The translations under genes were made by a program, and so were the position numbers. From an uncultured Clostridium sp. (GTDB lineage: Bacteria > Bacillota_I > Bacilli_A > RF39 > UBA660): a DNA stretch of 64,000 nt. Below are positions 8,901 through 64,000 of this stretch, piece after piece (position 1 is the stretch's first letter; every line of letters begins with the position of its first letter). Location: NCBI GenBank assembly GCA_946402315.1, contig CAMIWC010000005.1, forward strand, positions 854 through 64,853, given 5' to 3'. Below the pieces are notes generated by a model, which saw only the letters and a program-made list of their open reading frames with translations, had not been told where the DNA came from and did no database searches.

Positions 8901-10859
8901 AGTACCTAATTCAACATCTTCACTGTTATATGATATTAAAGTATTAATATAATTAGAAACTGAGTAATTTCTAAATATATGGAATAAACTTGTTACATTT
9001 TCTTGATTTTGATTTAGTACTCTAAATGTTAAATTATCAGTTGCTGATAAATCTCTTGTAACTCCTGAAATAATAAAGACATTATTATCACTAAATGATA
9101 TTTGATGAGGTTCAGAAATACATTTATTATCATTTAAAGTACATTTAGTTAAGATTTTCTCATCAATTTTATTGATTCCTGTTAAAGCAATATATTTATC
9201 ATCATTAACATTAGTTGTATGAATAGATCCAAAATAATCATATCTTACATAATTACCATAAAAAGATAATTTGAATTGACTTGTTTCTTCATCAAAAACT
9301 ATATTTTTATCTGAAATATCTATTGTATACAATCCTGGTTGAGAATATGTTTGTGATGTTAATAATACCCCTCCTGCATTTGAAGAATAAGTATTATCTT
9401 TAATAATAATTTCATTAGTACTTGCTCTATATAAAACACTTACTTTTGTATTATATGCAGTAACAAAGAATTTAACCTTTTTAACAGTTTCTTTTGTATA
9501 TCCCTTAGTAAATGTATTGATTTGTTGTGAGGCTCTATAAGAATTATCATAATCAACTTCACTTACATCTGAGATACTACTATATGAACTCTTCATAGAG
9601 TTATAAGGCAAATAAATAAAAGTATTTACATTTCCCCAAGAGTTTTGAACTATCCATGCTCCATTTATAGTATGTAGAGTACCTTTAGTACAAGAATAAC
9701 TACTACCTACTTTTTTAGCATCAGTTATTTCAAATCCAGTTTTATCTAAACAAATATTATGAGTATAATTATCATCCCAACCAATAACTGATACAGCATG
9801 GTTTATACCATCACTTGGATTCCATCCAGAAGGTATATAATATATCATATTTTTACCATTAGCATTTAATGCACTTTCTGTTCCTGTTGGAGTATATTCT
9901 ACTGATAAGTTTGAATAAGCACCAACTCCAACATATAAAGATCCATTAGTAACAATTTGTTGTTTAATAAGATTTACTAATGCATCTACTTCTTCTTGAT
10001 CATCAGAAGATAATGAATTAAAGAATAATAATTCATTAACACTATATTCTGTATTATTGATATTTGTAATTTCGTATGGAGAAAGTTTAGAATTATAACT
10101 ATAGTCATATTTCCAATACTTATCACTTGTTATACTATGATTACTATTGTAATTAGTACCATCACTACAATTTCCATCACATAAAATAGGTGAAATACCA
10201 ATAGCTGTTGAATTAGCAAATCTTATCATATTTCCACCATCATTTAGATTTTCTCCAATGATAGAATCATCATTTATATATGGATTGCTTTCAATATCTA
10301 TTGCTTTTGTAGCATCAGTAGTAGCATAATCTATTTGCTTTTCAGAAAAAGTTAACATTTTAGTCTTATTACTCTTTATAGCAATATGACTTTCTAAAGA
10401 TGTTACAGATGAGAAAGCCCAACATATACCTTCTGATCCTTGATCATATATATTTGTGATATAACCGTCATCTCTTAAGTTATAATATGACAATGATACG
10501 TTTTCATTAGAATCACCTTGTTTAGCAAGATAATCATTTTTATATGAGTGATCTACTATATATTTTTCTGGTACATGTCCATATTCACTTTTCTTACCCC
10601 TTATTAAATACTTAACATAATCTGGGTTTAAGTATGGTTCCTCATCTTTCTTTTCAGTTAGATTAAGTTCACCATTTTCTTCATAGACATTTTTTACATA
10701 TTCTTGTGCTTCTGTTGGTAAATAAGCATAAGAATTCTTATAAAGAACAGTTGTTATTAATTGTTTACTATCATTTTTAGTTAGGAATCCTCCAGCTAAA
10801 ATGATTGAAACAATAGATACAACCAACAATAATAATTTAATCCTTTTATTCATATTCAC
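5922..10859 (-). CDS. Giant secreted papain-like (C1) cysteine protease with GLUG repeats, four Listeria-Bacteroides repeats and a C-terminal dockerin
   Basis: Signal/anchor at the N-terminus. Catalytic Cys motif QGSEGICWAFSS, His INHAVSVIGWD and NSWG. GLUG-like GLFGTIYG/AGALAGKV segments. Four repeats of the ...F.GW(N)T..DGTG..Y...LYA.W type. Confidence 0.85.
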   Translation of the reverse strand: MNMNKRIKLLLLVVSIVSIILAGGFLTKNDSKQLITTVLYKNSYAYLPTEAQEYVKNVYEENGELNLTEKKDEEPYLNPDYVKYLIRGKKSEYGHVPEKYIVDHSYKNDYLAKQGDSNENVSLSYYNLRDDGYITNIYDQGSEGICWAFSSVTSLESHIAIKSNKTKMLTFSEKQIDYATTDATKAIDIESNPYINDDSIIGENLNDGGNMIRFANSTAIGISPILCDGNCSDGTNYNSNHSITSDKYWKYDYSYNSKLSPYEITNINNTEYSVNELLFFNSLSSDDQEEVDALVNLIKQQIVTNGSLYVGVGAYSNLSVEYTPTGTESALNANGKNMIYYIPSGWNPSDGINHAVSVIGWDDNYTHNICLDKTGFEITDAKKVGSSYSCTKGTLHTINGAWIVQNSWGNVNTFIYLPYNSMKSSYSSISDVSEVDYDNSYRASQQINTFTKGYTKETVKKVKFFVTAYNTKVSVLYRASTNEIIIKDNTYSSNAGGVLLTSQTYSQPGLYTIDISDKNIVFDEETSQFKLSFYGNYVRYDYFGSIHTTNVNDDKYIALTGINKIDEKILTKCTLNDNKCISEPHQISFSDNNVFIISGVTRDLSATDNLTFRVLNQNQENVTSLFHIFRNYSVSNYINTLISYNSEDVELGTYTIEVYYNNNKYDELEWNLTQHNNVMSGIGTEDNPYLIKTVSDLNDLRNQNTNGKYYKLNNDIDLSYDTTNSAGLFYNSGAGWLPIDDFYGSLDGNNHVISGLYINRPKSVSEDPVGLFGTIYGTNSYIKNLIIKDANINGNYYAGALAGKVSVTDGLEIYNISVVGGKVISTYYNGGIIGGINSTNGVTEEINCNMYNLYSNTIVGDTDTSFVGGIIGVIESSNRVLSVTISDSVTFSKVKGNGSTGNSSIGGIVGNASYLNQISIYNIISAGSYKTQSNTRFGDAVGYGHHNNSITINNVFYVNSKVKGILENNDYENVNNNTFITISNIINSNYTNNFNHSSYWTKPTIENIKRFPMPNTLVNIFDFTETIDDFDLKISGSKNIYDLIVPNTDNAKNIQWTYDDEYITISSTGIITPIKEGTTTINITSLYDGYRDNIQVNITQMSTITFNSNNPDAETNTQEVIINQDFNLNKNTFTYKGHTFKEWNTKANGTGTSYTDEQLIEGGISEDLTLYAIWNTINYRITFNGNGGTMSNSNNVMDWDLTYPNNGSVIFSTAGFSKENYILDSWNTDPNGTGISFSTNGSIVFDDIPFDNQYKITVYAQWRVETYTITFDANQGEGEMPSIEVIKNEIINLPKNTFTRNGYLFKEWNRSLYGTSTSYADEDPISITSNITLHAIWTPITYQIKYDSNGGSGSMNNSNLTYDQAFILPENTFTKPNMRFKEWNTKSDGTGTSYANKASVNNLTNENNQIVTLYAIWEEYGTITNSTSDFETIYDGNNHGLSINVDVENYTIRYSVGNTNYDLNTNPIFKDVGEYVVNYKITKSGYQDLIGSNKVKIYGIAQFDSSISLKENTLVVQDNSFESISNKITTYSTSTEIKHYNKNNQLVTTDTLKTGDIIKVKINGTKTFDYHIAFLGDTTGDGKINYLDYVYVYNHIKKVNNPELNKTLLVDEYLLAADMNGDDIINFLDYVRIYNKIKELKGGTN
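5925..6137 (-). other. Type I dockerin module (two EF-hand-like loops) at the C-terminus of the protease
   Basis: GDTTGDGKINYLDYVYVYNHI ... ADMNGDDIINFLDYVRIYNKI, the duplicated calcium-binding segment typical of dockerins. Confidence 0.75.
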
Positions 10860-37407: not shown

Positions 37408-37941
37408 CTAGTCTTCTCTTGCTTTTCTAATTATAATAATAAGTCCAATTATAACAATAATTGCAGATACACCGATAATTAAATCTGTTGTCTTCTTATC
37501 TTTTTCTTTTTCATCATGAACCCAATTGTTTTCTTTTATTACTTTATCAACAATATTAGCTCTTTCAGTAGTATCTTTTTCATATTCTTCTGTTATAGCT
37601 TGAATAATTAATGCAGGATCTTCACTTGGAGCAAATCCAGAGAATGTTTCTTCTCCAATTATCATAAATGGAACTCCACTTACTTGTATACCTAAATATT
37701 CTCCAGTTAAGCTTAATAGTTCAGCATTCTTTTCATCTTCCCAAACTTCATACTTAACTAAATCAAATTTATCTCCATATTCATCTTCAATAGTACTAAA
37801 CCACTCTAGTAATTCTTGGCAATGTGGACAAGTAGATCCATGAAATAAATAAACATTAACAGGTGCTTTGGTTTGAGCAAATGCAGTAGTTGGTACAACT
37901 AACATCAAAGCAACGAATAATATGCAAAATAATTTTTTCAT
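37408..37941 (-). CDS. Exported thioredoxin-fold protein with a CPHC active site and a C-terminal TM anchor
   Basis: Signal peptide ending AFAQ, STCPHCQELLEW, and a C-terminal hydrophobic helix plus RKARED. Start moved to MKKLF (SD GGAGG). Confidence 0.7.
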   Translation of the reverse strand: MKKLFCILFVALMLVVPTTAFAQTKAPVNVYLFHGSTCPHCQELLEWFSTIEDEYGDKFDLVKYEVWEDEKNAELLSLTGEYLGIQVSGVPFMIIGEETFSGFAPSEDPALIIQAITEEYEKDTTERANIVDKVIKENNWVHDEKEKDKKTTDLIIGVSAIIVIIGLIIIIRKARED

Positions 37942-38031
37942 GATAAACCTCCTAAGGCATATTATAACACAATTCAAAAATAAAGTATATTTTTTTATTT
38001 CATCAAAAAAAGAGAGAAATCTCTCTTTATT

Positions 38032-38670
38032 TTAAGATATATAAATAGTCTTTTTACCTATAACTATAATAACTATAAAAATAGCAGCACCTACTACAAG
38101 TCTAAAATATGGATTATTATAAATTGGTTCTTTCTCTTCTTCTTTTTTACTTGTTTGTTGGATTTGTTCATCTTCTTTACTATAATCATCTGTTATAGGA
38201 TCATCTGAATCATCTTGAGTTAGTATTCCATCTCCTGGTGAATCATGAGTCCATCCTGTTTGAGTAATTACTTCATCAACTATATTTACTCTTAAACCAG
38301 GATCTTTTTCATATTCTTGTTTGATAACTTTAATAATTATTTCAGGATCTTCTTCAGGAGAGAATCCAGTAAAGTAACCATTTCCTACTAACATAAATGG
38401 TACTCCACTAATATCTAAATCAGTATAAGAAGCAACATATGATAATAAAATAGAATTGCTTTCATCATACCAAACTTCATATTTAATTAATTCATACATA
38501 TCTCCATAATCTGATTCTATAGAACTAAACCATTCTAATAATTCATGACAATGTGGACATGTTTCACCATAGAATAAATAGATTTTTACAGGATCCTTTT
38601 TTTGAGCATAAGCACTAGTTGGTAATAATAATACCAATCCAAAAATTAAAACTAATAATACTTTTTTCAT
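38032..38670 (-). CDS. Exported thioredoxin-fold protein with a CPHC active site and a C-terminal TM anchor (paralog)
   Basis: About 60% identical by eye to the neighbour over the Trx fold (ETCPHCHELLEW). Acidic linker, then a C-terminal TM. Confidence 0.7.
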   Translation of the reverse strand: MKKVLLVLIFGLVLLLPTSAYAQKKDPVKIYLFYGETCPHCHELLEWFSSIESDYGDMYELIKYEVWYDESNSILLSYVASYTDLDISGVPFMLVGNGYFTGFSPEEDPEIIIKVIKQEYEKDPGLRVNIVDEVITQTGWTHDSPGDGILTQDDSDDPITDDYSKEDEQIQQTSKKEEEKEPIYNNPYFRLVVGAAIFIVIIVIGKKTIYIS

Positions 38671-50598: not shown

Positions 50599-51942
50599 AT
50601 GGCATATTCAAGATGGGCTAGTAAAGAAGAAATAATTAATAAAACTACCCAAATTAGTTATGATTCTAACATAAAAAAATCAGGAATTGAGATTATGTAT
50701 GATGATAATTATCTATATATAGATGATAGAGAAGCACATAATCTTATTGTAGGAGCTACTGGTTCTGGTAAAACACAAGCTACTATGTTACCTCAAATGA
50801 GACTTGCTATTAAAGCAGGAGAATCATTTGTAGTAAATGACATCAAAGGAGAAATATATAAAATCCTAAGTGGAGAATTAAAAAAACAAGGATACAAAAC
50901 ATATGTAATTAATCTAGTTGATACCAGCAAAGGAAATAACTACAATCCTTTATACTTACCTTATAAATTATATAAGAGTGGAGAAAAAGATAGAGCATTA
51001 GAAATGATTGAAAATGTAGGTTATTATTTATTAGCATCAGAAACAAGTAAAAATGAGGATCCATTCTGGATTAATTCTGCTATTAATCTATTTACTGGAT
51101 TAACACTATATTTGTTTGAGAATGCAAAAGAAGAAGAAATAAATATTAACAGTTTATCATTACTTGCAAACGAAGGGGAAAAGCTAGGAAAATATATTAG
51201 AACACTAGATAAAAGTTCATTAATATACATTTATCTATCTGGTATATTAGAAGCACCAAATGAAACTAAGGGATCAATTATAGCCGTATTTAAACAAAGA
51301 ATTAAACTTTTCACTACAAAAGAAGGATTGTCTAGAATACTATGTAACAATAATATAGACATAGAAAATATTCAAAAAGAAAAAACAGCTTTATTTATAA
51401 TAAATGAAAATAAAACTATTACAAAAGATCTAGTATCATTAATAATAGATCAATGTTACTATATGGAAAATATTAATCCAGATACTTCTAGAAGATTAAA
51501 CTTCTATATAGATGATTTTGAAAATATTAGTTCTATTAGAAACTTTGTAAATATTTTAAATATATCTAGAGGAAACAATGTTAGATTTAATATTTACTTA
51601 AAGAGTTTCTTAGAATTAGATAATCTATATGGCAAAGATACTGCCGAATTAATAAAAATGACATTTGGAAATATTATATATTTACTTGCAAATGACATTG
51701 AAACACTACAACAAATATCAAAACTTTGTGGTAGATTGGATGAAAATACTAGATTAATCTCTGAAGAAGAATTAAAAACTATGGGATATTTTGAAGCGAT
51801 TATTATTGCTCCAAGAATGTATCCAATCAAAACCAAACTATTACCAGACTACCAAATTGATTGGCAATTTGAAAAAGAACCGGTTGAACAACCAAACCTT
51901 GAATACACTAATGTTGAATTATACACAATTAAAGAGGATTAA
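50599..51942 (+). CDS. TraG/VirD4-family type IV coupling protein homolog lacking an N-terminal membrane anchor
   Basis: HNLIVGATGSGKTQATMLP Walker A, VVNDIKGE, and Walker B-like LNFYIDDFE. No TM helices. Confidence 0.7.
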   Translation: MAYSRWASKEEIINKTTQISYDSNIKKSGIEIMYDDNYLYIDDREAHNLIVGATGSGKTQATMLPQMRLAIKAGESFVVNDIKGEIYKILSGELKKQGYKTYVINLVDTSKGNNYNPLYLPYKLYKSGEKDRALEMIENVGYYLLASETSKNEDPFWINSAINLFTGLTLYLFENAKEEEININSLSLLANEGEKLGKYIRTLDKSSLIYIYLSGILEAPNETKGSIIAVFKQRIKLFTTKEGLSRILCNNNIDIENIQKEKTALFIINENKTITKDLVSLIIDQCYYMENINPDTSRRLNFYIDDFENISSIRNFVNILNISRGNNVRFNIYLKSFLELDNLYGKDTAELIKMTFGNIIYLLANDIETLQQISKLCGRLDENTRLISEEELKTMGYFEAIIIAPRMYPIKTKLLPDYQIDWQFEKEPVEQPNLEYTNVELYTIKED

Positions 51943-51977
51943 TCCTCTTTTTTTGTTATAATAATATTGGTGATAAC

Positions 51978-52694
51978 ATGGATGATATAAAAGAATTACA
52001 AAGAATAATAGACCAATCCGATAATATAGTATTTTTTGGAGGAGCAGGAGTATCTACCGAAAGTGGTCTTAAAGACTTTAGAGGTAAAAATGGTTTATAT
52101 AAAGAAATAGATACTAATTATCCTCCTGAATACTTACTAAGTATTAAATGTTTACTAAAAGAACCAGAATTATTCTTTAAATATTATCGAAAGAACTTAG
52201 ATTCTTCTAACATAGAACCAAATATCACACATAAATATTTAAAGAATTTGGAAGATGAAGGAAAACTAAAAGCAATTGTAACTCAAAATATAGATGGACT
52301 CCATCAAAAAGCTGGATCTAAAAATGTATTAGAAATACATGGTACTACATATAGAAATTATTGTATTAATTGTAGAATGGAATATCCTAATGATTATATC
52401 TTTAAGAGTAAAGATATACCTAGATGTATATGTGGAGGTATAATTCGTCCTGATGTAGTTTTATATGGTGAAATGTTACCAGAAGCATATAGTCTAGCAG
52501 TATCATATATTATGAAAGCAGAAGTATTAATAGTTGCTGGTACTTCTTTAACAGTTGAACCTGCAGCTAGCCTTATTAAATACTTTAATGGAAAACATTT
52601 AATAATTATAAATAATACTCCTACTCTATATGATAGCTATGCTGAATTAGTAATTAATAAACCTCTTGGAGAAATATTTTCTAAGTTAAAATAA
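51978..52694 (+). CDS. cobB: NAD-dependent protein deacylase (Sir2/CobB)
   Basis: GAGVSTESGLKDFRG, QNIDGLH, HG, and the zinc ribbon CINC...CICGG. Confidence 0.9.
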   Translation: MDDIKELQRIIDQSDNIVFFGGAGVSTESGLKDFRGKNGLYKEIDTNYPPEYLLSIKCLLKEPELFFKYYRKNLDSSNIEPNITHKYLKNLEDEGKLKAIVTQNIDGLHQKAGSKNVLEIHGTTYRNYCINCRMEYPNDYIFKSKDIPRCICGGIIRPDVVLYGEMLPEAYSLAVSYIMKAEVLIVAGTSLTVEPAASLIKYFNGKHLIIINNTPTLYDSYAELVINKPLGEIFSKLK

Positions 52695-52718
52695 AAAACT
52701 AACTAAAAAGTTAGTTTT
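52695..52718. terminator. Bidirectional terminator hairpin, ACTAAC/GTTAGT family (variant copy 1)
   Basis: AAAACTAAC-TAAAAA-GTTAGTTTT between convergent cobB and the next gene. The minus gene's stop lies in the right arm. Confidence 0.6.
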
Positions 52719-53778
52719 TCATTTCTAATTTTTTTACCAAAGCTGTAGCTCTTACTCTACCACTTGCTGTTACTTTTTCTTCACGTGAATAATAACCAAT
52801 ACCTTGTCTTCTTGAGTAATCACCAACCATTGGTCTATCATGATATTCTAACAAGAACCATTTATCTCTTTCTCTATCATAAATAAAGTCAAATCCACAT
52901 ATTATTCCAAGTTCAGATTCAAATTGCTTATGAACATCTTTAGCAGATTGTACTAATTCGTGGAATTGATATGTATCTATACCATGTGATAATAATAATT
53001 CTTTTTCAAATCTTGAATAAGAATTATCAAATAATAGAACATTCTTACCACCAGAGCATGTATTAGAAACAATTGATTTAGTACTCAACTTAAATGTATC
53101 TCCTAATAAAAAACCTAATAACGAAGTCCTATCATCTAATGGTTCTGTTTCATTATATTTTAATGCTCCATATAATAAATCTCCAGATGATGAAGTTAAT
53201 AGCCTTACTGTAGTATTATATTGTGATGGAGTTGGAATATATTCTTGAATTCTAAAATTACGTTTTAAATACCCATCATAATCTTTTAGTCCTCCAAAAA
53301 AATTAAGTTTTGCAATTCTACTAATAAATTCTTTATTTAATAATAAAGAACAAGCATTAATTAAGTTATCATAATCTTCTTCAGTAGCAATTAAAAATTT
53401 TTCTCTACCACAGTTTTGGTTTTCATTTTTAAACACGAATGGCAATCTATATCTATGATTAACTAAAGCATCAAAATCAAAAAAATAAGTATTGGGTATA
53501 GCAAATCCTCTATCGTCCAATTTACCATCTATTTCGCTATGAACTAAAGTTAAATACTCTTCTTCTGTAGTACATTTATAATCTTGCCTTCTACCAGTTA
53601 CATATATTGTTGATGCATCGGCATATCTAATATCTCTAACTATTCTATAACCATGACGAACTAAACTAACATATAACTTTAGGTCAGTTTCTTCCATTCT
53701 TAGATAAATCGCATGTTCATTACCATCTTCTGGATTTATAAAATCTGGTAATTCATCATAAGAAATAATTCTCTCCAT
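52711..53778 (-). CDS. ATP-grasp-like protein (uncertain)
   Basis: PFVFKNENQNCGREKFLIATEEDY and FDFIYDRERDKWFLLEYHDRPMVG resemble ATP-grasp central and C-terminal motifs. Confidence 0.4.
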   Translation of the reverse strand: MERIISYDELPDFINPEDGNEHAIYLRMEETDLKLYVSLVRHGYRIVRDIRYADASTIYVTGRRQDYKCTTEEEYLTLVHSEIDGKLDDRGFAIPNTYFFDFDALVNHRYRLPFVFKNENQNCGREKFLIATEEDYDNLINACSLLLNKEFISRIAKLNFFGGLKDYDGYLKRNFRIQEYIPTPSQYNTTVRLLTSSSGDLLYGALKYNETEPLDDRTSLLGFLLGDTFKLSTKSIVSNTCSGGKNVLLFDNSYSRFEKELLLSHGIDTYQFHELVQSAKDVHKQFESELGIICGFDFIYDRERDKWFLLEYHDRPMVGDYSRRQGIGYYSREEKVTASGRVRATALVKKLEMKN

Positions 53779-53877
53779 AGCCTCAACCCCTCTTTTTTAC
53801 GCTGCATATTATATCAAAAATACTTAAAAAAGTCAATTTTAGCAAAAAATGGTATAATAATTTTAGGAGTGATTATT

Positions 53878-54750
53878 ATGATTTATCTTAAAAAATTGGG
53901 ACTTCCAAGTGAAGAAAACGAAGATGAAATGATTAATTCTAAAGTAAATATGCATAATAATTTTTATCCATTGAGAATCTTCCCAGAAAAACAATTAAAA
54001 AATATTTCTTTTGAGCCTATAACTATTTTTTATGGTGGTAATGGTTCTGGTAAAACAACAATTTTAAATATAATAAGTGATACTATTAATGCTTCTAAAA
54101 AAAATATCGACAATAGAAGTGAGTTCTTTAAACGATATGTTGGTATATGTAAACAACAATACGAAATAGTAAATCAAAATGAATGTAAAAGTATTAAATA
54201 CATATCAAGTGATGATGTATTTGATTATTTATTAGATTTAAGAGCAATAAACTCTAGTGTTAATAGAAGAAAAGAAGATTTAGTAAATGAGTACTTTGAA
54301 TATAAAAATTCACCATCAGGTACATATAATTCAGGAATAGATCAATATGAAGATTTAAAAAATAAAGTTGATTCAAATAGAATGACTGTATCTAAATATG
54401 TTAGAACTAGACTAAGTAACAATAATATTATTCAAGAATCTAATGGTGAAACAGCATTAGATTTTTGGCAAAAAGAAATTGAAGATAATTCTATTTATAT
54501 TATTGATGAACCAGAAAATAGTTTATCAGCTGAAAATCAATTAAAATTAAAACAATTTATTGAAGAATCAGCAAGATTTTACAACTGCCAATTTATAATC
54601 GCAACCCATTCTCCATTTTTATTAGCTTTAGAAGGAGCAAAAATATATGATCTTGATAGTATTCCAGCAAAAGCGAAAAAATGGACGGAACTAGATAATG
54701 TTAGAGTGTATTATCAATTTTTTGCGGATAATAGAGACAAATTCGAATAG
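53878..54750 (+). CDS. ABC/SMC-like AAA_21-type ATPase (stand-alone)
   Basis: FYGGNGSGKTTILN Walker A, LSAENQ signature-like, IYIIDEPE Walker B and ATHSP H-loop. Start ATG with SD AGGAGTG. Confidence 0.75.
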   Translation: MIYLKKLGLPSEENEDEMINSKVNMHNNFYPLRIFPEKQLKNISFEPITIFYGGNGSGKTTILNIISDTINASKKNIDNRSEFFKRYVGICKQQYEIVNQNECKSIKYISSDDVFDYLLDLRAINSSVNRRKEDLVNEYFEYKNSPSGTYNSGIDQYEDLKNKVDSNRMTVSKYVRTRLSNNNIIQESNGETALDFWQKEIEDNSIYIIDEPENSLSAENQLKLKQFIEESARFYNCQFIIATHSPFLLALEGAKIYDLDSIPAKAKKWTELDNVRVYYQFFADNRDKFE

Positions 54751-54776
54751 AAAACACTAACAAATGTTAGTGTTTT
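54751..54776. terminator. Bidirectional terminator hairpin, CACTAAC/GTTAGTG family (copy 2)
   Basis: AAAACACTAAC-AAAT-GTTAGTGTTTT, identical over 26 nt to copy 3. Confidence 0.7.
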
Positions 54777-54787
54777 TAATTATTATT

Positions 54788-55585
54788 TCAACTCATAAAC
54801 TTATTTAAATAATCAAGATAATAATTAAAATCCTCTCTATCATATTTATAAGTTCTACACATTCTAATTATAAATGTGATATACATAATAGCCTTTTTAT
54901 ACTCTAAGTCTACATTAAAATATTTTAATAAATCATTGAAACTTACATCTTTAAAGATATGATAATCAGAATAAATCGCAAAGAAAAAATCATATAAAGG
55001 ATCTCCTACAAGTCCCATCGGATCTATAAAGAATAGTTCATTATTATTGATAACAAAGTTATGTGTTCCAAAGTCACCATGTAATAAATACTTATCTATT
55101 TTATTGTTTGAAACGATATTTAATGCTTTATTAATACTATCCATATCAAATTTGTTTTCATCTAACAATTCTATTGAGTAATCAATTTCATCTTTTAAAA
55201 AATCAGTCCAAGTCTTATGATCTTCAAATAAATATCCAAAGCCATCATAGTCTATTTTTTTATAATTAGATGTTGTTTCATATAATATATTGATAATTCT
55301 ATTTACTTCAATACTATTATCATATTTATTTCCTTGTATAAAAGAAAGACACGCATAACTTAAATCATAGTTTATATAATATAGTTTTTGAAATCTTTTA
55401 CCATTATATTTAGAAAAGAATTCATTATATACATCTAATTCTTGTTTATTAGTTTTCTTAATTAAATACTCATTATTAATACTAAAAACTATAGCTTCAG
55501 TAGCGCCTTCAGAAAAAACTTTAATATCATCTTCTGATATTTTAATATTTAACTTTTCTTCAATATCATCTAATAATTCTTTCAT
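54788..55585 (-). CDS. Aminoglycoside/choline-kinase-like phosphotransferase (APH family)
   Basis: LLHGDFGTHNFVI...FIDPMGLVGDPLYDF is the Brenner/catalytic loop plus DFG-like motif. Confidence 0.8.
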   Translation of the reverse strand: MKELLDDIEEKLNIKISEDDIKVFSEGATEAIVFSINNEYLIKKTNKQELDVYNEFFSKYNGKRFQKLYYINYDLSYACLSFIQGNKYDNSIEVNRIINILYETTSNYKKIDYDGFGYLFEDHKTWTDFLKDEIDYSIELLDENKFDMDSINKALNIVSNNKIDKYLLHGDFGTHNFVINNNELFFIDPMGLVGDPLYDFFFAIYSDYHIFKDVSFNDLLKYFNVDLEYKKAIMYITFIIRMCRTYKYDREDFNYYLDYLNKFMS

Positions 55586-55780
55586 AATGTTCACCTAAAA
55601 TCATTATATTAGATACTATAATTTAATACAATAATACGTGTGATATAATAACCATGTGTAATATAATAAAAATGTAAAAAAATGAGTGCAATTACATAAA
55701 AATATAAAACGCACTTAAAAGTTGGTAGAATAAAAAAGATATTAATTATAAACTTAAAGCATGAAAGGAGAGAAAATCTA

Positions 55781-56698
55781 ATGAAATTTGGAGATAATCT
55801 AAAAAAAATAAGAAAAATGAGAAAAATATCTCAGGAGGAATTAGCAGATAAGTTAGGAGTATCTAGACAATCTGTATCTAAATGGGAAACAGGAGAAAAT
55901 TACCCTAGCATGACTAATATTATGTGTTTATGCACTATATTTAAATGTAATATCAATGAGTTAGTACATGAAGATATGGATGATATAAATTCATTAGATG
56001 AAGAAATTAAAATGAGTGTTGTTAAGTTTAAAAGTGAAAAACAAAAGAAAGTTAGAGTATTATCAACTATTATTGCTGATATTGCTAAAGTAGGATGGAT
56101 TATTTCAATTGTATTAGTATGTTTCGTCGCAATTGGAACAATTTTATTACCAATTGCCTTAAAAGATATTGAAATTAAAGATAATAAAATAGTATCTGAT
56201 GGTAAAATTGTTGAAATTATTGAAGAAAAAGATAAACTAGTTTTAAAACATAAAAATGAAGTACTTGCCGATGTAAGAGATCAAAAATCAATTTCTTTAA
56301 TCAAAGAAGTAATAAATGGTAATTTAAATAACAAAGGATTACTAATTGGATGCTGCGAAGTTGCATTAATAACTATGATAGTATGTTTAATATTAGCTGT
56401 ATTTATGTTTAAGAAATTAGAAAAGTTATTCAATAACATAAAAAAAGGCGATACTCCATTTACTTTAGAAAATGTTGAATATATTAAAAAAATAGCTTAT
56501 ATCATGATAGCTTTAATCATTCTTCCAAATATAGGTGGAACAATATTTGAAATTATTTTGAAACAAGATTTAGACATTTCTTTTGAACCATTTAGCATTT
56601 TAGAAGTCTTAATCATATTTGTTATCTCATATATATTTGAATATGGATATGAAATACAATTAGATTCTAAAGGAAAAATGTATGGAGATATAAAATAA
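55781..56698 (+). CDS. XRE-family HTH fused to a DUF2975-like membrane domain
   Basis: The N-terminus ISQEELADKLGVSRQSVSKWETGENYP is an XRE HTH. The C-terminal multi-TM region with GDTPFTLENV...IFEYGYEIQLDSKGKMY is paralogous to ORF 58550-59281. Confidence 0.7.
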   Translation: MKFGDNLKKIRKMRKISQEELADKLGVSRQSVSKWETGENYPSMTNIMCLCTIFKCNINELVHEDMDDINSLDEEIKMSVVKFKSEKQKKVRVLSTIIADIAKVGWIISIVLVCFVAIGTILLPIALKDIEIKDNKIVSDGKIVEIIEEKDKLVLKHKNEVLADVRDQKSISLIKEVINGNLNNKGLLIGCCEVALITMIVCLILAVFMFKKLEKLFNNIKKGDTPFTLENVEYIKKIAYIMIALIILPNIGGTIFEIILKQDLDISFEPFSILEVLIIFVISYIFEYGYEIQLDSKGKMYGDIK

Positions 56699-56709
56699 TT
56701 ATAAATAAA

Positions 56710-56735
56710 AAAACACTAACAAATGTTAGTGTTTT
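56710..56735. terminator. Bidirectional terminator hairpin, CACTAAC/GTTAGTG family (copy 3)
   Basis: AAAACACTAAC-AAAT-GTTAGTGTTTT. The stop of the minus-strand NUDIX gene abuts the T-run. Confidence 0.7.
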
Positions 56736-57306
56736 ATTTATTAATATAATTTAAATATGATTTTATTAAATCAGCATCCATAAGATTATTTGGTACATCT
56801 TTTGGAGTAAAAAATCTTAATCTTTTAGTTTCAGAATCTCCTTTTAGATTAGAATCATCTTCTAAAGATACATCGACTAAATATAATGAAGTATTATTAT
56901 ATACTATATCTCCATTAGGATAACTATTCTTTCTACTTTCTCCTGATAATGTATCAATAAGTATTATTTCATTTGGATCTATTCTTAATCCAGTTTCTTC
57001 ATATGCTTCTCTAACCGCAGTAAATCTTAGATCTTCTCCTAAATCTTGGCATCCTCCAGGAAGGCCCCATTTATCTCTATCAGTTCTTTCTTGTAGAAGA
57101 ATCTCTCCTTTTTCATTTCTTATTATTATAGCTGCACCTGTTTGAATAAATGGTATATGACTAATTCTATCATCAAGAGCCATTCTAAATAAAACAGGAT
57201 AGCCACCATAATTAGCGCTTAAATTTAGTAGTTCTTCTTCACTTAAACTTTGTACTAATTCTACAAATTCTTCATGAGTATATTCTCTCATCTTTTTATA
57301 ACTCAT
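56734..57306 (-). CDS. NUDIX hydrolase
   Basis: Nudix box GGCQDLGEDLRFTAVREAYEETGL. Confidence 0.9.
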   Translation of the reverse strand: MSYKKMREYTHEEFVELVQSLSEEELLNLSANYGGYPVLFRMALDDRISHIPFIQTGAAIIIRNEKGEILLQERTDRDKWGLPGGCQDLGEDLRFTAVREAYEETGLRIDPNEIILIDTLSGESRKNSYPNGDIVYNNTSLYLVDVSLEDDSNLKGDSETKRLRFFTPKDVPNNLMDADLIKSYLNYINK

Positions 57307-58149: not shown

Positions 58150-58173
58150 AAACACTAACTATTGTTAGTGTTT
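58150..58173. terminator. Bidirectional terminator hairpin, CACTAAC/GTTAGTG family (copy 4)
   Basis: AAACACTAAC-TATT-GTTAGTGTTT. It encodes the last six codons and the TAG stop of ORF 58155-58511. Confidence 0.7.
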
Positions 58174-59987: not shown

Positions 59988-60257
59988 TAGTAAATATTAA
60001 TACTTTATATTATTAATAAAAAGGAAGCAAATTGCTTCCTTTTAATGTATTAGGATTTGTAAAAAAATGTTGACATAAGAAAGTCTTAACAAAAAATAAA
60101 CAATTGTAATGTTATATGAATGCAAAAACTATATAGTTATTAAAATGATTTAGGAAAAACCTAAAGCTTTTAATTTCACATAGCAGGATTTTATAGGAAA
60201 TTCAATTTTTTTTACACATTTAAATTGTATTATTGCTAAAATGATTATAAAAAAATT

Positions 60258-60290
60258 AAAAAACACTAACAATTAAAGTTAGTGTTTTTT
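60258..60290. terminator. Bidirectional terminator hairpin, CACTAAC/GTTAGTG family (copy 5)
   Basis: AAAAAACACTAAC-AATTAAA-GTTAGTGTTTTTT. Confidence 0.7.
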
Positions 60291-60296
60291 TATTCA

Positions 60297-60329
60297 AAAT
60301 GGCACAATAATCATAGGTGTTTAAAACTT
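60297..60329. repeat. 33-nt box, copy A (4 mismatches relative to B/C)
   Basis: AAATGGCACAATAATCATAGGTGTTTAAAACTT, immediately 3' of the GNAT gene stop and 11 nt from the hairpin arm. Confidence 0.7.
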
Positions 60330-60330
60330 T

Positions 60331-61074
60331 TTATTTAATTAATTTTTCAAAAGCATTTGCATTTAATATTGTATTAGAAATAAATTTACCTTTATAAAAG
60401 TTAGCCCAGTTATTAAATACACATGGTGCATTCTTAGCTTTATCTAATGAATCTATTTTAATAAAGTTTAATTTAATTCCTTTATCTTTAGCATAATCAG
60501 ATAACTCTTGAATTTCATATTCTACATATGGACATTCGTTAGAATAATAAATAGTAAAATCTTGACTATCTATTTCCATCTTTCTAGCGTTATCATTAAA
60601 CTTAGGTGTCTCTTTATCATCAAATTGTAATACCATTAATTCATAATCATTAATTGTATCTACTACTTTAAATCCATAATGTTCGAAGAATTTCTTATCT
60701 CCAATAAATGGCTTCTTCTTTTGTGTAACTATTGTACAAACACCACTCATTTTTTTATTCTTTGCATCTTGGATAGCATATTCTAATAATTCTTTTCCAA
60801 TGCCTTTACCTTTAAAACTTCCAGCAACCCATAAACAATAAATATACATATAATTTTTACCATTAATAGGAACCCATGATGTTTCAATTGGTTCATATTC
60901 AATAAAGATTTTCCCTCTAGCATTTAGTTTTCTAAATACATGTCCATCTTTTAATTTACTTTTAATCCATTCTTTCTTTTTATCTACACCATATTGATGT
61001 TTAGGATCTCCTATAGCACAACATATATGCTCTTCTTCAATATTCTTTTCATCTAAATTAATGTACTCATTCAT
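60331..61074 (-). CDS. GNAT N-acetyltransferase with a C-terminal YoaP-like domain
   Basis: GNAT motif A WVAGSFKGKGIGKELLEYA. The C-terminal CPYVEYE...APCVFNNWANFYKGKF resembles the YoaP-like domain. Confidence 0.75.
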   Translation of the reverse strand: MNEYINLDEKNIEEEHICCAIGDPKHQYGVDKKKEWIKSKLKDGHVFRKLNARGKIFIEYEPIETSWVPINGKNYMYIYCLWVAGSFKGKGIGKELLEYAIQDAKNKKMSGVCTIVTQKKKPFIGDKKFFEHYGFKVVDTINDYELMVLQFDDKETPKFNDNARKMEIDSQDFTIYYSNECPYVEYEIQELSDYAKDKGIKLNFIKIDSLDKAKNAPCVFNNWANFYKGKFISNTILNANAFEKLIK

Positions 61075-61093
61075 AACTTACACCTCTATTAAT

Positions 61094-61102
61094 ATTATAG
61101 CA
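61094..61102 (-). promoter_or_regulatory. Extended -10 (TGCTATAAT) directly upstream of the GNAT gene
   Basis: The reverse complement of ATTATAGCA lies 19 nt before the ATG, with SD GAGGTG in between. Confidence 0.4.
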
Positions 61103-61103
61103 T

Positions 61104-61127
61104 AAAAAAAAGTAGCCAAAGCTACTT
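61104..61127 (-). terminator. Minus-strand intrinsic terminator in the GNAT/methyltransferase intergenic region
   Basis: AAGTAGC-CAAA-GCTACTT, followed on the minus strand by T7-8. Confidence 0.55.
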
Positions 61128-61135
61128 CATAAACA

Positions 61136-61168
61136 AAATGGCACGGTAATCATAGGGGTTTCAAACTT
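61136..61168. repeat. 33-nt box, copy B
   Basis: AAATGGCACGGTAATCATAGGGGTTTCAAACTT, identical to copy C. Confidence 0.8.
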
Positions 61169-61196
61169 GTTATACTTTATTAAAATAGTATGACAA
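61169..61196 (-). promoter_or_regulatory. Candidate minus-strand sigma-A promoter (TTGTCA-16-TATAAC) reading into box B
   Basis: Reverse complement of TGACAA (61191-61196) and GTTATA (61169-61174). Confidence 0.4.
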
Positions 61197-61201
61197 CAGT
61201 A

Positions 61202-61210
61202 TGATATAAT
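61202..61210 (+). promoter_or_regulatory. Extended -10 (TGATATAAT) for the methyltransferase gene
   Basis: Lies within the conserved ~95-nt module, 18 nt upstream of the ATG with SD AAGGAGG. Confidence 0.5.
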
Positions 61211-61228
61211 TGATAAGGAGGCTTTCTT

Positions 61229-61987
61229 ATGAATAAAAAAGATTTTATTGAAATTAATAAAAACGGATGGAATACATTAATAACAAATAATAAACCATTT
61301 TCTAATACTATATTACCAGAATATGGCCCATTTCTTAAAAGAAATGAAAACGAAATGAATATTATGAATAATATTAATGGTGCTAAAGTATTAGATTTAG
61401 GCTGTGGTGAAGGTGAATCACTAGAATATTTATTCAATAAAGGTGCTAAAGAAATATGGGGATTAGATATTTCTAAGGAACAAATAAATAAGGCTCAAAT
61501 TAGGTTTCCCCAATTCAAAGATAATTTTTTAATCTCACCAATGGAAGAAGAAGTTAATATACCAAATAATTACTTTGATTATATTATTTCTATTTTTAGT
61601 ATAGGATATACCTCTGATTTAAATAGTACTTTTAAAAATTCATATAAATATTTAGCAAATGATGGTAAGTTTATAATTAGTTGGACTCATCCATTTTATT
61701 ATTGTTTAGATATAGTAGATGATAAGGTAGTCATAAATAGATCTTATTTCAATGAAGAATCTGAAATTATAACAAAAGGTCCTGATAAAGTTAATCTTGC
61801 TCAAAATAATATGATGATATCAACAGTTATAAATACAGCAAGTGATAATGGATTTTATTTAGATAAATTATATGAAGAAGAAACAATATTAAAAGATGAT
61901 GTAAATGGATATAAAAGTACATTTTGGAGAAAAGAAAAGACAGTTAATTGTCCAAGCACAATAATTTTTGTATTTAAAAAACACTAA
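61229..61987 (+). CDS. Class I SAM-dependent methyltransferase
   Basis: VLDLGCGEGES motif I and GLDIS motif II. The stop codon TAA lies inside the hairpin arm CACTAAC. Confidence 0.85.
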   Translation: MNKKDFIEINKNGWNTLITNNKPFSNTILPEYGPFLKRNENEMNIMNNINGAKVLDLGCGEGESLEYLFNKGAKEIWGLDISKEQINKAQIRFPQFKDNFLISPMEEEVNIPNNYFDYIISIFSIGYTSDLNSTFKNSYKYLANDGKFIISWTHPFYYCLDIVDDKVVINRSYFNEESEIITKGPDKVNLAQNNMMISTVINTASDNGFYLDKLYEEETILKDDVNGYKSTFWRKEKTVNCPSTIIFVFKKH

Positions 61988-62005
61988 CATTAAAGTTAGT
62001 GTTTT
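61977..62005. terminator. Bidirectional terminator hairpin, CACTAAC/GTTAGTG family (copy 6)
   Basis: AAAAACACTAAC-ATTAAA-GTTAGTGTTTT. Confidence 0.7.
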
Positions 62006-62013
62006 AATTTACT

Positions 62014-62046
62014 AAATGGCACGGTAATCATAGGGGTTTCAAACTT
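62014..62046. repeat. 33-nt box, copy C
   Basis: AAATGGCACGGTAATCATAGGGGTTTCAAACTT. The preceding hairpin plus 11-nt spacer plus TGGCA closely matches the 3' flank of tRNA-Trp. Confidence 0.8.
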
Positions 62047-62074
62047 ATTATAATTGATTATAACAATATGACAA
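62047..62074 (-). promoter_or_regulatory. Candidate minus-strand sigma-A promoter (TTGTCA-16-TATAAT) reading into box C
   Basis: Reverse complement of TGACAA (62069-62074) and ATTATA (62047-62052). Confidence 0.45.
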
Positions 62075-62079
62075 CAGCA

Positions 62080-62088
62080 TGATATAAT
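62080..62088 (+). promoter_or_regulatory. Extended -10 (TGATATAAT) for the AlkD-like gene
   Basis: Same conserved module as at 61202-61210. Confidence 0.5.
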
Positions 62089-62111
62089 TGATACGTGAGG
62101 TTGTGATATAA

Positions 62112-62783
62112 ATGAGTATATATGAAAGACTGTTATCTTATCAAGATGAAAAATATAAAGACTTTCAAAGCAAACTTATCCCAAATATAGATAAAAAAAC
62201 AATTATAGGTGTTAGAACACCACAAATGAGAAAAATTGTTAAAGAAGTATATGGTACAAAAGAATCAACTATATTTTTACAAACTTTGCCACATCAATAT
62301 TATGAAGAAAATCTTATTCATTTCTTTTTAATTTCAAAGATTAAGGACTTTGATGAGTGCATAAAGGAAGTAGAAAGATTTTTGCCATACATTGATTGCT
62401 GGCCGGTTTGTGATCAAGCAACACCTTTGGTGTTTAAGAAAAATCATGATAAACTCCTTCCACTAATAAAAAAATGGATAAATTCCAATCACGTATATAC
62501 CGCTAGATTTGGTATACGTATATTAATGAATGAATATTTAGATAAAGATTTTAAGAATGAATATTTAGAATTAGTTGCATCTAAAACTGGAGAGGATTAT
62601 TATTTAAAAATGATGATTGCGTGGTATTTCGCAACAGCATTAGCTAAACAATATGATGCAACAATAAAATATATAAAAAATAGAAGTCTTGATCCATGGA
62701 TACATAAGAAAGCAATACAAAAAGCAGTAGAAAGTTATAGAGTATCAGATGAACATAAAGAATATCTTAAAAAGTTTAGATAA
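62112..62783 (+). CDS. DNA alkylation repair protein (AlkD-like HEAT-repeat family)
   Basis: YKDFQSKLIPNIDKKTIIGVRTPQMRKIVKE and overall length and helical repeat layout typical of the DNA_alkylation family. Confidence 0.7.
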   Translation: MSIYERLLSYQDEKYKDFQSKLIPNIDKKTIIGVRTPQMRKIVKEVYGTKESTIFLQTLPHQYYEENLIHFFLISKIKDFDECIKEVERFLPYIDCWPVCDQATPLVFKKNHDKLLPLIKKWINSNHVYTARFGIRILMNEYLDKDFKNEYLELVASKTGEDYYLKMMIAWYFATALAKQYDATIKYIKNRSLDPWIHKKAIQKAVESYRVSDEHKEYLKKFR

Positions 62784-62807
62784 ACTAGTAAAAGTATAAA
62801 CAAATAA

Positions 62808-62836
62808 AAAAGCACTAACAATTAAGTTAGTGTTTT
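62808..62836. terminator. Terminator hairpin, CACTAAC/GTTAGTG family (copy 7), terminating tRNA-Trp and the AlkD-like gene
   Basis: AAAAGCACTAAC-AATTAA-GTTAGTGTTTT, 11 nt from the tRNA 3' end. Confidence 0.7.
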
Positions 62837-62847
62837 AATATTCTAAA

Positions 62848-62921
62848 TGGCAGGGGATGAGAGAATCGAACTCCCAACTAAAGTTTTGGAGACTCCTATT
62901 ATACCATTTAACTAATCCCCT
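62848..62921 (-). tRNA. trnW: tRNA-Trp (anticodon CCA), CCA 3' end encoded
   Basis: Manual cloverleaf: acceptor AGGGGAT/ATCCCCT, D stem GTTA/TAAT, anticodon stem GGAGT/ACTTT with loop CTCCAAA, T arm GGGAG-TTCGATT-CTCTC, discriminator G, then CCA. Confidence 0.85.
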
Positions 62922-62939
62922 AAAAATTTGTACATAAAT

Positions 62940-62967
62940 ATTATAACATAAATTTATTTATGCACAA
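62940..62967 (-). promoter_or_regulatory. Candidate promoter of tRNA-Trp (TTGTGC-16-TGTTATAAT)
   Basis: Reverse complement of GCACAA (62962-62967) and ATTATA (62940-62945) with TG at -14/-15. It lies 18 nt upstream of the mature 5' end. Confidence 0.5.
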
Positions 62968-62979
62968 GTTTTTTTATTA

Positions 62980-64000
62980 TTACTCCTCTTCTTCTAATTT
63001 TCTATAATCTACTTTACCAATCATAGTTTTAGGAAGAGATTCTCTAAATACATATTCCTTAGGTAACATATATTTAGCTAAATTCTTTTCACAATAATCT
63101 TTTATATCTTTCTTAACCTTTGCAGTTGGTTTAATACCTTCTTTAAGTACAATATATGCCTTAGGTACTTGTACTTTATATGGATGAGGTACACCTACTA
63201 CACAAGAGTTTAAGATATATTCATGTTTATTTAAGACATCTTCTAAGTGAGATGGGAAGACATTATATCCAGATACAATAATAAGTCTTTTAATTCTTTG
63301 AACAAAGAATAAGATACCATCTTCATTCATATATCCCATATCTCCAGTATGTACCCATACTTTACCTTTTTTATCTCTTTCCAAAATATCGTTAGTTTCT
63401 TTTTCATTATTTAAGTATCCCATCATTACAGATGGACCACTTACTACTATTTCTCCTTTTTCACCAGGAGGGAGTTCTTCTTTAGTATTAACATCTATAA
63501 TCTTAAGATCATTACTTGGAAGAGGTATTCCTACTCCACCCATTACTTTAGCAGTTTCTCCAGTACTAAATATTATTCCTCCACTAGCTTCAGTAAGTCC
63601 ATATCCTTGAATAATTCCTTTAGGACTATGATGTTCTTCTAAAAACTTATTTACGGCGATATTTTTTTCTTCATTTAATGAGTCTCCTCCAGAAACTACA
63701 TACTTAACATTAGATAAGTCTACTTTATCCATATGTTTATTAGATATCATTGCTTCAAAAAGAGTTGGTACTCCTGGTATAACTGTTGGTTTATATTTAG
63801 TTAATAATTTATCAAATCTAGATGCATCAAATTTAGGTACTAGTATTACTTCTAATCCTTGTGATAAAGGGAAATGCAAACACTCTACTAATCCAAAACA
63901 ATGAAAGAATGGAAGTATAGATAAGAATGAATCACTTTTATTAATATCTGGAAGAGCAATCTTAGCTTGTTCAGGAACTACATTCAAATTACCATTAGAT
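62980..64000 (-). CDS. AMP-binding acyl-CoA synthetase (long-chain fatty acid--CoA ligase-like), 5' end outside the window
   Basis: YGLTEASGG, TGDMGYMNEDG and the C-terminal KVDYRKL motif. The frame stays open to the window edge. Confidence 0.85.
   Translation of the reverse strand, partial: SNGNLNVVPEQAKIALPDINKSDSFLSILPFFHCFGLVECLHFPLSQGLEVILVPKFDASRFDKLLTKYKPTVIPGVPTLFEAMISNKHMDKVDLSNVKYVVSGGDSLNEEKNIAVNKFLEEHHSPKGIIQGYGLTEASGGIIFSTGETAKVMGGVGIPLPSNDLKIIDVNTKEELPPGEKGEIVVSGPSVMMGYLNNEKETNDILERDKKGKVWVHTGDMGYMNEDGILFFVQRIKRLIIVSGYNVFPSHLEDVLNKHEYILNSCVVGVPHPYKVQVPKAYIVLKEGIKPTAKVKKDIKDYCEKNLAKYMLPKEYVFRESLPKTMIGKVDYRKLEEEE

Follow-up and report, generated by a model that had tools for sequence, protein, structure and literature searches.

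A 64,000-nt stretch of an uncultured Clostridium sp. genome (GTDB lineage Bacteria; Bacillota_I; Bacilli_A; RF39; UBA660; assembly GCA_946402315.1, contig CAMIWC010000005.1, positions 854 to 64,853 of the forward strand; hereafter the window) carries three copies of a 33-nt sequence box next to unrelated genes. We consider it likely that small mobile cassettes of one gene each are stacked behind a tRNA-Trp gene in an integron-like manner and that this box is their conserved end, serving as an attP-type arm at each integration junction. In the window, the best explanation of the region is a three-cassette array anchored on tRNA-Trp that runs, on the minus strand, from an AlkD-like gene (reverse) and box C through a methyltransferase gene (reverse) and box B to a GNAT gene (forward), box A, and a terminator. 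By analogy with an element found at the same kind of site in a related locus, such arrays probably use a large serine recombinase (LSR).

Box copies and the tRNA-Trp gene in the window

The box (AAATGGCACGGTAATCATAGGGGTTTCAAACTT) matches exactly at 61136-61168 (copy B) and 62014-62046 (copy C), with no chance match in 100 shuffles, and a shorter third copy with four substitutions (copy A) is found at 60297-60329. The similarity of copies B and C extends over 90 nt, 61126-61215 against 62004-62093, at 88% identity (repeat family D8). On the minus strand, all three copies are followed by a hairpin with a T run (60258-60290, 61109-61128, and ~61976-62001), and promoters are present at copy C (TTGTCA-16-TATAAT, 62074 to 62047) and copy B (TTGTCA-16-TATAAC); the copy C promoter matches at 11 of 12 positions and is the top promoter-like site of the 3-kb region. 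On the plus strand, TGATATAAT elements are present 5' of the methyltransferase and AlkD-like genes, and a module with outward promoters on both strands is supported. Pfam identifies the flanking genes as encoding a GNAT plus YoaP protein, a class I S-adenosylmethionine (SAM)-dependent methyltransferase, and a DNA_alkylation (AlkD-like) protein; an exact-protein look-up of the last of these gave no record. These features, together with the mini-open reading frames (mini-ORFs) that begin in the boxes, had been described in a first-pass annotation of the region, and its sequence observations were all borne out; what it missed is the tRNA-Trp gene.

This gene, tRNA-Trp(cca), lies on the minus strand directly upstream of all three boxes in their sense (Table 1). 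Its 3' end and flank read CCCCTGCCA TTTAGAATATT AAAACACTAAC-TTAATT-GTTAGTG, and the tRNA 3' end, trailer, and terminator (CTGCCATTTAGAATATTAAAACACTAAC..GTTAGTG) are homologous to the sequence after box C and box A (repeat family D7), so that the repeated unit is "something ending in TGCCA" followed by the tRNA-Trp trailer and a terminator. The hairpin after the tRNA is a bidirectional terminator that also serves the AlkD-like gene, and the same trailer and hairpin follow most boxes. Each cassette is made up of a terminator for the tRNA or unit that comes before it, a single gene under a promoter of its own, and an arm; the trailer after box A is probably the displaced original tRNA-Trp trailer. 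TGCCA junctions delimit the three cassettes, whose gene content is limited to AlkD, methyltransferase, and GNAT, with no integration or transfer genes. We also observed that the methyltransferase stop codon TAA (61985-61987) falls inside the 5' arm of the bidirectional CACTAAC..GTTAGTG terminator, and the last codons of the gene therefore form part of the junction hairpin.

Table 1. Features of the tRNA-Trp array and of related loci (two dots or a hyphen separate first and last positions; locus numbers are given for positions outside the window)
Feature	Position	Strand	Evidence or remark
tRNA-Trp (anticodon CCA), array anchor	62848..62921	-	ARAGORN; Rfam RF00005, 60.9 bits; CCA end is the putative primary attachment point (B arm)
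tRNA-Trp trailer TTTAGAATATT and type-1 terminator hairpin CACTAAC-TTAATT-GTTAGTG (62813-62832)	62806..62847	-	Putative B' side
Cassette 1 gene, DNA_alkylation (AlkD-like), reverse relative to array	62112..62783	+	Pfam PF08713, E=3.7e-15
Cassette 1 promoter module	62047..62111		Plus: TGATATAAT for AlkD-like gene; minus: TTGTCA-16-TATAAT into box C
Box C, box1-type arm, end of cassette 1	62014..62046	-	Minus-strand reading AAGTTTGAAACCCCTATGATTACCGTGCCATTT
Trailer TTTAGTAAATT and type-1 terminator hairpin, start of cassette 2	61976..62013	-
Cassette 2 gene, SAM-dependent methyltransferase, reverse	61229..61987	+	Pfam Methyltransf_11/23/25
Cassette 2 promoter module	61169..61228		Plus: TGATATAAT; minus: TTGTCA-16-TATAAC
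Box B, box1-type arm, end of cassette 2	61136..61168	-
Start of cassette 3: trailer, type-2 terminator GTAGC..GCTAC (61109-61128), extended -10 TGCTATAAT (61102 to 61094), ribosome-binding site (RBS)	61075..61135	-
Cassette 3 gene, GNAT acetyltransferase with YoaP-like C-terminal domain, forward	60331..61074	-	Pfam PF14268, PF00583
Box A, box1-type arm, four substitutions; last array junction	60297..60329	-	1 nt past GNAT stop codon
Trailer TTTTGAAT and type-1 terminator hairpin after box A	60258..60296	-
Arm promoters	Window 62047-62074, 61169-61196; L002 5160-5220, 7600-7660; L001 1780-1880; L063 11100-11175
Box2 copies	L002 6130-6200; L009 2060-2150; L028 14200-14270; L031 (two); L044; L052
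Integrative mobilizable element (IME) family	L062 2409-6427; L068 1-4102; L063 2593-11200; L064 9348-13521; L002 357-5160
Type IV secretion system coupling-protein-like ORF	50599-51942
Sir2	51978-52694
AAA_21/AbiEii-like ATPase	53869-54750
APH-like kinase	54788-55594
XRE-HTH/DUF2975 protein	55781-56698
NUDIX hydrolase	56734-57306

Distal to the array lies an accessory island (50599-57306; last six rows of Table 1), several genes of which have homologues inside the box arrays of other loci. Three further CACTAAC..GTTAGTG hairpins, at 54755-54772, 56714-56731, and 58153-58170, stand between convergent genes with no adjoining box or GCCA core; in the window this hairpin type is confined to 54.7-62.8 kb, and the three may be decayed cassette junctions. 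Window positions 54730-54850, at the 3' end of the APH-like gene, and a box-bearing homologue in locus L028 are too diverged for an alignment to show whether a box was precisely deleted. Elsewhere in the window, two neighbouring paralogous genes for signal-peptide proteins (37408-38670) are 73-74% identical at a spacing of 729 nt (repeat families D1/D2), and a 1645-aa surface-type protein encoded at 5922-10859 is internally repetitive, its repeats recurring every ~225-250 nt (repeat families D4/D5).

Cassette modularity and shuffling between genomes

By profile search, 89 boxes were located in 62 sources, all of them uncultured rumen or gut Bacillota. A degenerate box pattern found nine loci in species-representative genomes, all metagenome-assembled genomes (MAGs) labelled Erysipelotrichaceae, 'Tenericutes', Bacilli, or Bacillota, and also matched 52 metagenome contigs, many of them broken off at the box; no copy was found in the viral contigs, plasmids, and phages scanned. 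The same low-GC Bacillota-type tRNA-Trp array was observed in a MAG labelled Muribaculaceae (L004; CAZELY010000005.1), where a binning error is probable. Boxes are co-oriented within every locus. The same tRNA lies on the same strand upstream of the boxes in 14 loci besides the window, and wherever tRNA-Trp is in view (15 sources) it precedes the first box by ~230-2100 nt. The conservation profile has a sharp left edge at AAGTTT, ~26 nt from CCA, and continues through GTGCCA and TTTAGAATATT into one of ~5 interchangeable types of terminator hairpin; behind one of these types there is always a TGnTATAAT promoter with an RBS and a gene. The type-2 module of terminator, promoter, and RBS found after copy B is generic and precedes many unrelated forward genes.

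Scans against Rfam (at gathering thresholds for the window and nine loci, and by E-value for 60150-62980 and loci L001, L002, and L063) returned only tRNA and tmRNA, and when the boxes and the other arms described below were compared with ARAGORN and Rfam RF00005 there was no tRNA match, even at E<=10, other than the true tRNA-Trp. A reading of the box as a tRNA 3' half was considered and rejected, as its likeness to the T arm is weak and gapped and no tRNA model matches; comparison by eye with dif/Xer and attC consensus sequences gave only short matches at chance level.

The units between boxes are small and uniform. Complete junction-to-junction intervals (n = 42) have a median length of 737 nt, and exactly one ORF is present in 36 of them. 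The 48 cassette ORFs, 28 reverse and 20 forward, fall into 40 sequence families, which include GNATs, methyltransferases, AlkD, NUDIX hydrolases, XRE-HTH membrane proteins, and a TfoX_N-like protein; at forward genes, the box starts between -3 and +15 nt from the stop codon. These units also recur in different company. The methyltransferase unit of the window (61136-62014, exactly one repeat period) is 89.9% identical to positions 9639-10517 of L060, and both neighbours are unrelated; the AlkD cassette with its tRNA is 92-94% identical in L018 and L029, and the sequence past the box differs. An HTH cassette of L005 recurs after tRNA-Trp in L043, after a different arm (box3, below) in L002, and after the box in L036, and its homology begins exactly at TGCCA in L002 and L036. 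In L061, a full unit (type-2 terminator, promoter, small gene, and box) directly follows tRNA-Trp-CCA. Overall, break-points of homology between loci cluster at +20 to +34 from CCCC, right after GTGCCA/TTTAG, or after the hairpin.

Other arms and a large serine recombinase element

The TGCCA/trailer core is also joined to left partners other than the box described so far (box1), namely box2 (seven copies), box3 (in L002), and several singleton arms. Box2 (TGGTATATTAAATATGTAATCAGGTTTTATCCYATTTTTTCGTAAACGTTCATAAAGAGCG/TGCCA) is a second conserved arm with the same junction role as box1, and it resembles the right-end arm of a tmRNA-specific element in L063 (GTTCATATAAGGG). The sole recombinase found is a 626-aa LSR in L002 with Resolvase, Recombinase, and Zn_ribbon_recom domains; it is encoded beside a Mob_Pre (MobV) relaxase and adjoins a TGCCA/trailer junction, and the two genes make up an IME. 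Immediately next to a CCA end lie homologues of this LSR: at tRNA-Trp in L062 (82% identity) and L068 (75%), at tmRNA in L063, and at tRNA-Thr in L064-67. Members of this IME family are made up of a 90-aa ORF, the 626-aa LSR, and the Mob_Pre relaxase, and the target varies by subfamily. Their left end is conserved (CCA, 2 nt, then TGATAGGAARCTCGRAC and two hairpins); a simple pattern gave no match for the right end of the tRNA-Thr IME in L064.

For box3 elements, the Trp system presents all four arm combinations: tRNA/trailer in the window and elsewhere, tRNA/ATGATAGGAAGC in L062 and L068, and both box3/trailer and box3/ATGATAGGAAGC in L002 (the IME-side arm is also given as ATGATAGG, hence tRNA/ATGATAGG and box3/ATGATAGG). 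Box1 is seen only as box1/trailer, and it occupies the position of box3, that is, of an element arm joined to the tRNA trailer; the proposed link between box1 and the LSR is thus drawn by analogy from the box3 case and not from direct association. Several arms also have the trinucleotide AGT at -25 (25-23 nt before N73-CCA), which is present in 46 of 51 box1 copies and in five otherwise unrelated arms, including that of the tmRNA element in L063, or 6 of the ~10 arm families that we separated by eye. The target RNAs have the RGT of the T loop at -21, a shift of 4 bp relative to the arms. This shift resembles that of the ZD motif of serine integrases, which for the LI integrase is displaced 5 bp toward the centre in attB relative to attP (PMC3783163), and the sharp left edge of the box, ~26 nt from CCA, is in keeping with a half-site of this kind in length. 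A symmetric 'ACT' motif was also considered for the right half-sites but not used: it agrees with the type-1 hairpin if the crossover is placed at GC and not otherwise, and it fails for the other terminator types and the IME P' arm.

We propose that the box is the element-side arm of a site-specific recombination junction, in which the minus-strand sequence AAGTTTKAAACCCCTATGATTAYCGT/GCCA is joined to the tRNA-Trp trailer TTTAGAATATT and its hairpin. An LSR supplied in trans, for which the kind carried by the tRNA-Trp-specific mobilizable elements of L002, L062, and L068 is a candidate, would recombine box/trailer (attP-like) with tRNA-Trp/trailer (attB) at or beside CCA; box1 cassettes would be substrates of that recombinase and would still be mobile. 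Because the right half of the cassette is similar to the tRNA trailer, each integration would restore a site of attB-like type beside the tRNA, and new units could then stack at this site as they do at integron attI. That a terminator always follows the junction would be explained by the need for each incoming unit to end the tRNA transcript. Arrays may alternatively have grown by accretion of larger elements that then lost their integration modules, leaving remnants like cis-mobilizable elements (CIMEs); no intermediate forms were seen, and the uniform one-gene design of the cassettes argues against simple decay from an integrative and conjugative element (ICE) or IME. We put forward more tentatively, as a possibility that we hold to be less likely than not, that these arrays are an integron-like gene-capture platform of low-GC Bacillota that works with an LSR instead of IntI, in which the CCA end of tRNA-Trp would play the part of attI and the ~45-bp box/trailer that of attC; one-gene cassettes, each bringing a terminator and a promoter of its own, would be stacked, shuffled, and swapped between species, and a junction RNA might take part.

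Several points weigh against cassettes moved by a serine recombinase. Pfam scans found no recombinase gene at 44-64 kb of the window, and an LSR adjoins an array in one locus only (L002), where it is attached to box3/box2 junctions and not to box1. Nor did a tyrosine recombinase turn up: no Phage_integrase was found at 44-64 kb of the window or among the best 25 of the 78 and 87 families listed for the locus sets (177 locus proteins), and an RHRY-box motif search of all locus proteins found none, although its regular expression is crude and this negative is weak evidence. Serine integrases normally leave a repeat of 2 bp only and do not recombine attP-like sites with each other, so that excision of an internal cassette is unexplained. 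AGT is shifted by 4 bp and not by 5, and the motif is missing from box2. Neither a circular cassette nor a pair of empty and occupied sites from one population was observed. Finally, a conserved promoter reads into every arm type, which a pure DNA-site model does not predict.

Alternative explanations and known systems

These promoters are an argument for the view that the box is also, or instead, an RNA element, in the form of a ~60-75-nt small RNA (an unstructured C-rich 5' part plus the terminator) that would have its own promoter in reverse-gene cassettes and lie in the 3' untranslated region (UTR) in forward-gene ones, acting as a regulator or a protein-binding tag. A sigma-70-like promoter points toward CCA and the terminator in every arm type and not at box1 alone, which predicts a short RNA across the junction, and from the sequence such an RNA is probably made. 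TTGTCA-N15/16-TATAAT abutting the box is kept in several reverse-gene cassettes with different genes and in at least two types of upstream module, the hexamers being conserved and the spacers diverged; exact TATAAT within <=10 nt of the box is found in 10 of 34 reverse-gene copies versus 0 of 29 forward-gene copies; the terminator always follows within ~10-12 nt of the box; and the box C promoter, as noted above, is the best of its region. However, there is no secondary structure past the terminator (the fold z-score of copy B is -0.7), no Rfam family match, and no identified target, and an RNA function would leave unexplained the link to tRNA-Trp and its shared flank, the co-orientation of the boxes, the one-gene spacing, the joining of unrelated arms to one core, and the TGCCA break-points. 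An antisense action of the box RNA on tRNA-Trp was tried and set aside, since neither duplex energy nor local alignment was significant against shuffles (p ~0.04-0.1). Conservation of the minus-strand promoter in other genomes thus bears out part of what the first-pass annotation had offered as explanations, in that its fallback of small RNAs keeps some standing and its preferred leader-peptide attenuator does not; we nevertheless think it unlikely that a small RNA is what accounts for the box.

It is also quite improbable, in our estimation, that no dedicated recombinase is involved and that the junction module is either portable homology (45-100 nt) for gene swaps by homologous recombination or a fixed relic of old tandem integrations. 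Most arrays have no recombinase nearby, the junction modules are long enough and nearly identical across species, and the box-less hairpins at 54755, 56714, and 58153 look decayed, all of which such an origin would accommodate. It fits less well with the break-points, which fall at a defined TGCCA even where the flanks share nothing further, or with the LSR element, which uses exactly this point, and the AGT at a fixed -25 in unrelated arms argues for recognition by a protein. In addition, 40 nt are near-perfect across species whose flanking genes are 72-93% identical, which requires selection or ongoing spread.

The first-pass annotation had proposed that the mini-ORF of the box (MITVPF...) is a leader peptide controlling the downstream GNAT gene by ribosome-mediated attenuation, and this we regard as highly improbable. 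The homology search in other genomes upheld one part of the proposal, the start codon, which is kept in 80 of 84 copies. Where the spacing is of the commonest class, the TAA of the CACTAAC arm serves as the stop of the ORF (34 of 64 copies). The length of the ORF and the place of its stop are, on the other hand, variable. Only the box-encoded MI(I/T)VP(F/L) is constant, the peptide ranging from 5 to at least 27 aa in a scan of 81 nt beyond which longer ORFs run, and the stop lies upstream of, inside, or beyond the hairpin, being in the 5' arm in only the above 34 of the 64 copies that have a perfect-stem hairpin. Conservation is equally strong 5' of the ATG, with a sharp edge 15 nt before it and no codon pattern, and a Shine-Dalgarno sequence is absent. 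Folding gave the terminator alone and no alternative anti-terminator pairing. The generic terminator, TGnTATAAT promoter, and RBS after copy B place a promoter between the terminator and the GNAT gene; most copies, with type-1 terminators, face a convergent gene at its 3' end, and 29 copies belong to the 3' UTR of the gene upstream. The box units therefore differ from erm/cat-type leaders, which have a leader ORF led by a Shine-Dalgarno sequence, a stall peptide, alternative pairings, and a promoter-less gene, and the tie to tRNA-Trp and cassette arrays would be left unexplained.

Returning to the box as the end of mobile cassettes, the arrays can be compared with integrons, with which they share co-oriented short recombination-type repeats around accessory genes that are mostly single and unrelated, a primary site at one fixed place, ORF stops that abut or overlap the repeat, and similar contents (acetyltransferases, methyltransferases, and small unknowns). 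They differ in that no IntI tyrosine recombinase adjoins the array here by Pfam and motif scans; in that the repeat is non-palindromic, 45 nt long, and conserved in sequence, whereas attC is an R''/L''/L'/R' hairpin conserved in structure (the box is unstructured when folded, and the adjoining hairpins are simple terminators); and in that the cassettes have their own promoter and terminator, occur in both orientations, and have as their primary site a tRNA 3' end in low-GC Bacillota. To our knowledge, integrons, the classic systems by which single genes are collected, are essentially absent from Firmicutes.

The closest parallels otherwise are islands built up behind small-RNA genes. The tandem ssrA islands of Dehalococcoides have a CcrB-like serine recombinase (DsiB), a repeat of 20 bp beside a conserved motif of 15 bp, and units without an integrase (PMC3146451), and CIMEs and accretion, including ICESt1/CIME, have been reviewed (PMC5704250). 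As in these, tandem units lie downstream of a small-RNA gene with repeats of its 3' end and a conserved element-side motif, some units lack integration genes, and the integrase is, here as a candidate, a serine recombinase; the window cassettes, bounded by putative att sites and with no integration or transfer genes, resemble CIMEs in this respect. Unlike the islands, which are several kb or more, the units here are 0.25-2 kb, with one gene and uniform expression modules, the repeat includes the tRNA trailer and terminator and not the body of the RNA gene, and the arm is conserved across many species. The junctions may also be comparable to LSR att sites (A118/LI, phiC31, and Bxb1; PMC3783163) in that the arm extends ~25-26 bp from the crossover, a distal motif stands further out in the element arm, few bases (TGCCA) are common to all partners, and four att combinations exist for the LSR element, but here the shift is 4 bp instead of 5, dyad symmetry is weak, and the right half of the cassette is that of the target, so that junctions look like attP and attB at once. 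The tycheposons of Prochlorococcus (bioRxiv 10.1101/2020.12.28.424599) are likewise islands seeded at tRNA genes in which new integrations push older cargo outward and repeats mark old events, but they involve tyrosine recombinases, partial-tRNA repeats, and multi-gene elements in cyanobacteria.

The arrays are unusual in their integron-like scale and uniformity, with one gene per unit, standard expression modules, and a spread over many species. The 45-nt junction and its variants provide a simple marker for such arrays and for breaks in metagenome assemblies, and the linked LSR family, which changes its target (tRNA-Trp, tmRNA, or tRNA-Thr) yet keeps one element end, could be of interest to developers of genome-integration tools. 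If our interpretation is correct, tRNA-anchored arrays dependent on a serine recombinase would represent an independent solution to the collecting of single genes in abundant uncultured rumen and gut bacteria, and would explain how acetyltransferase, methyltransferase, DNA-repair, NUDIX, and XRE-type regulator genes move between their species.

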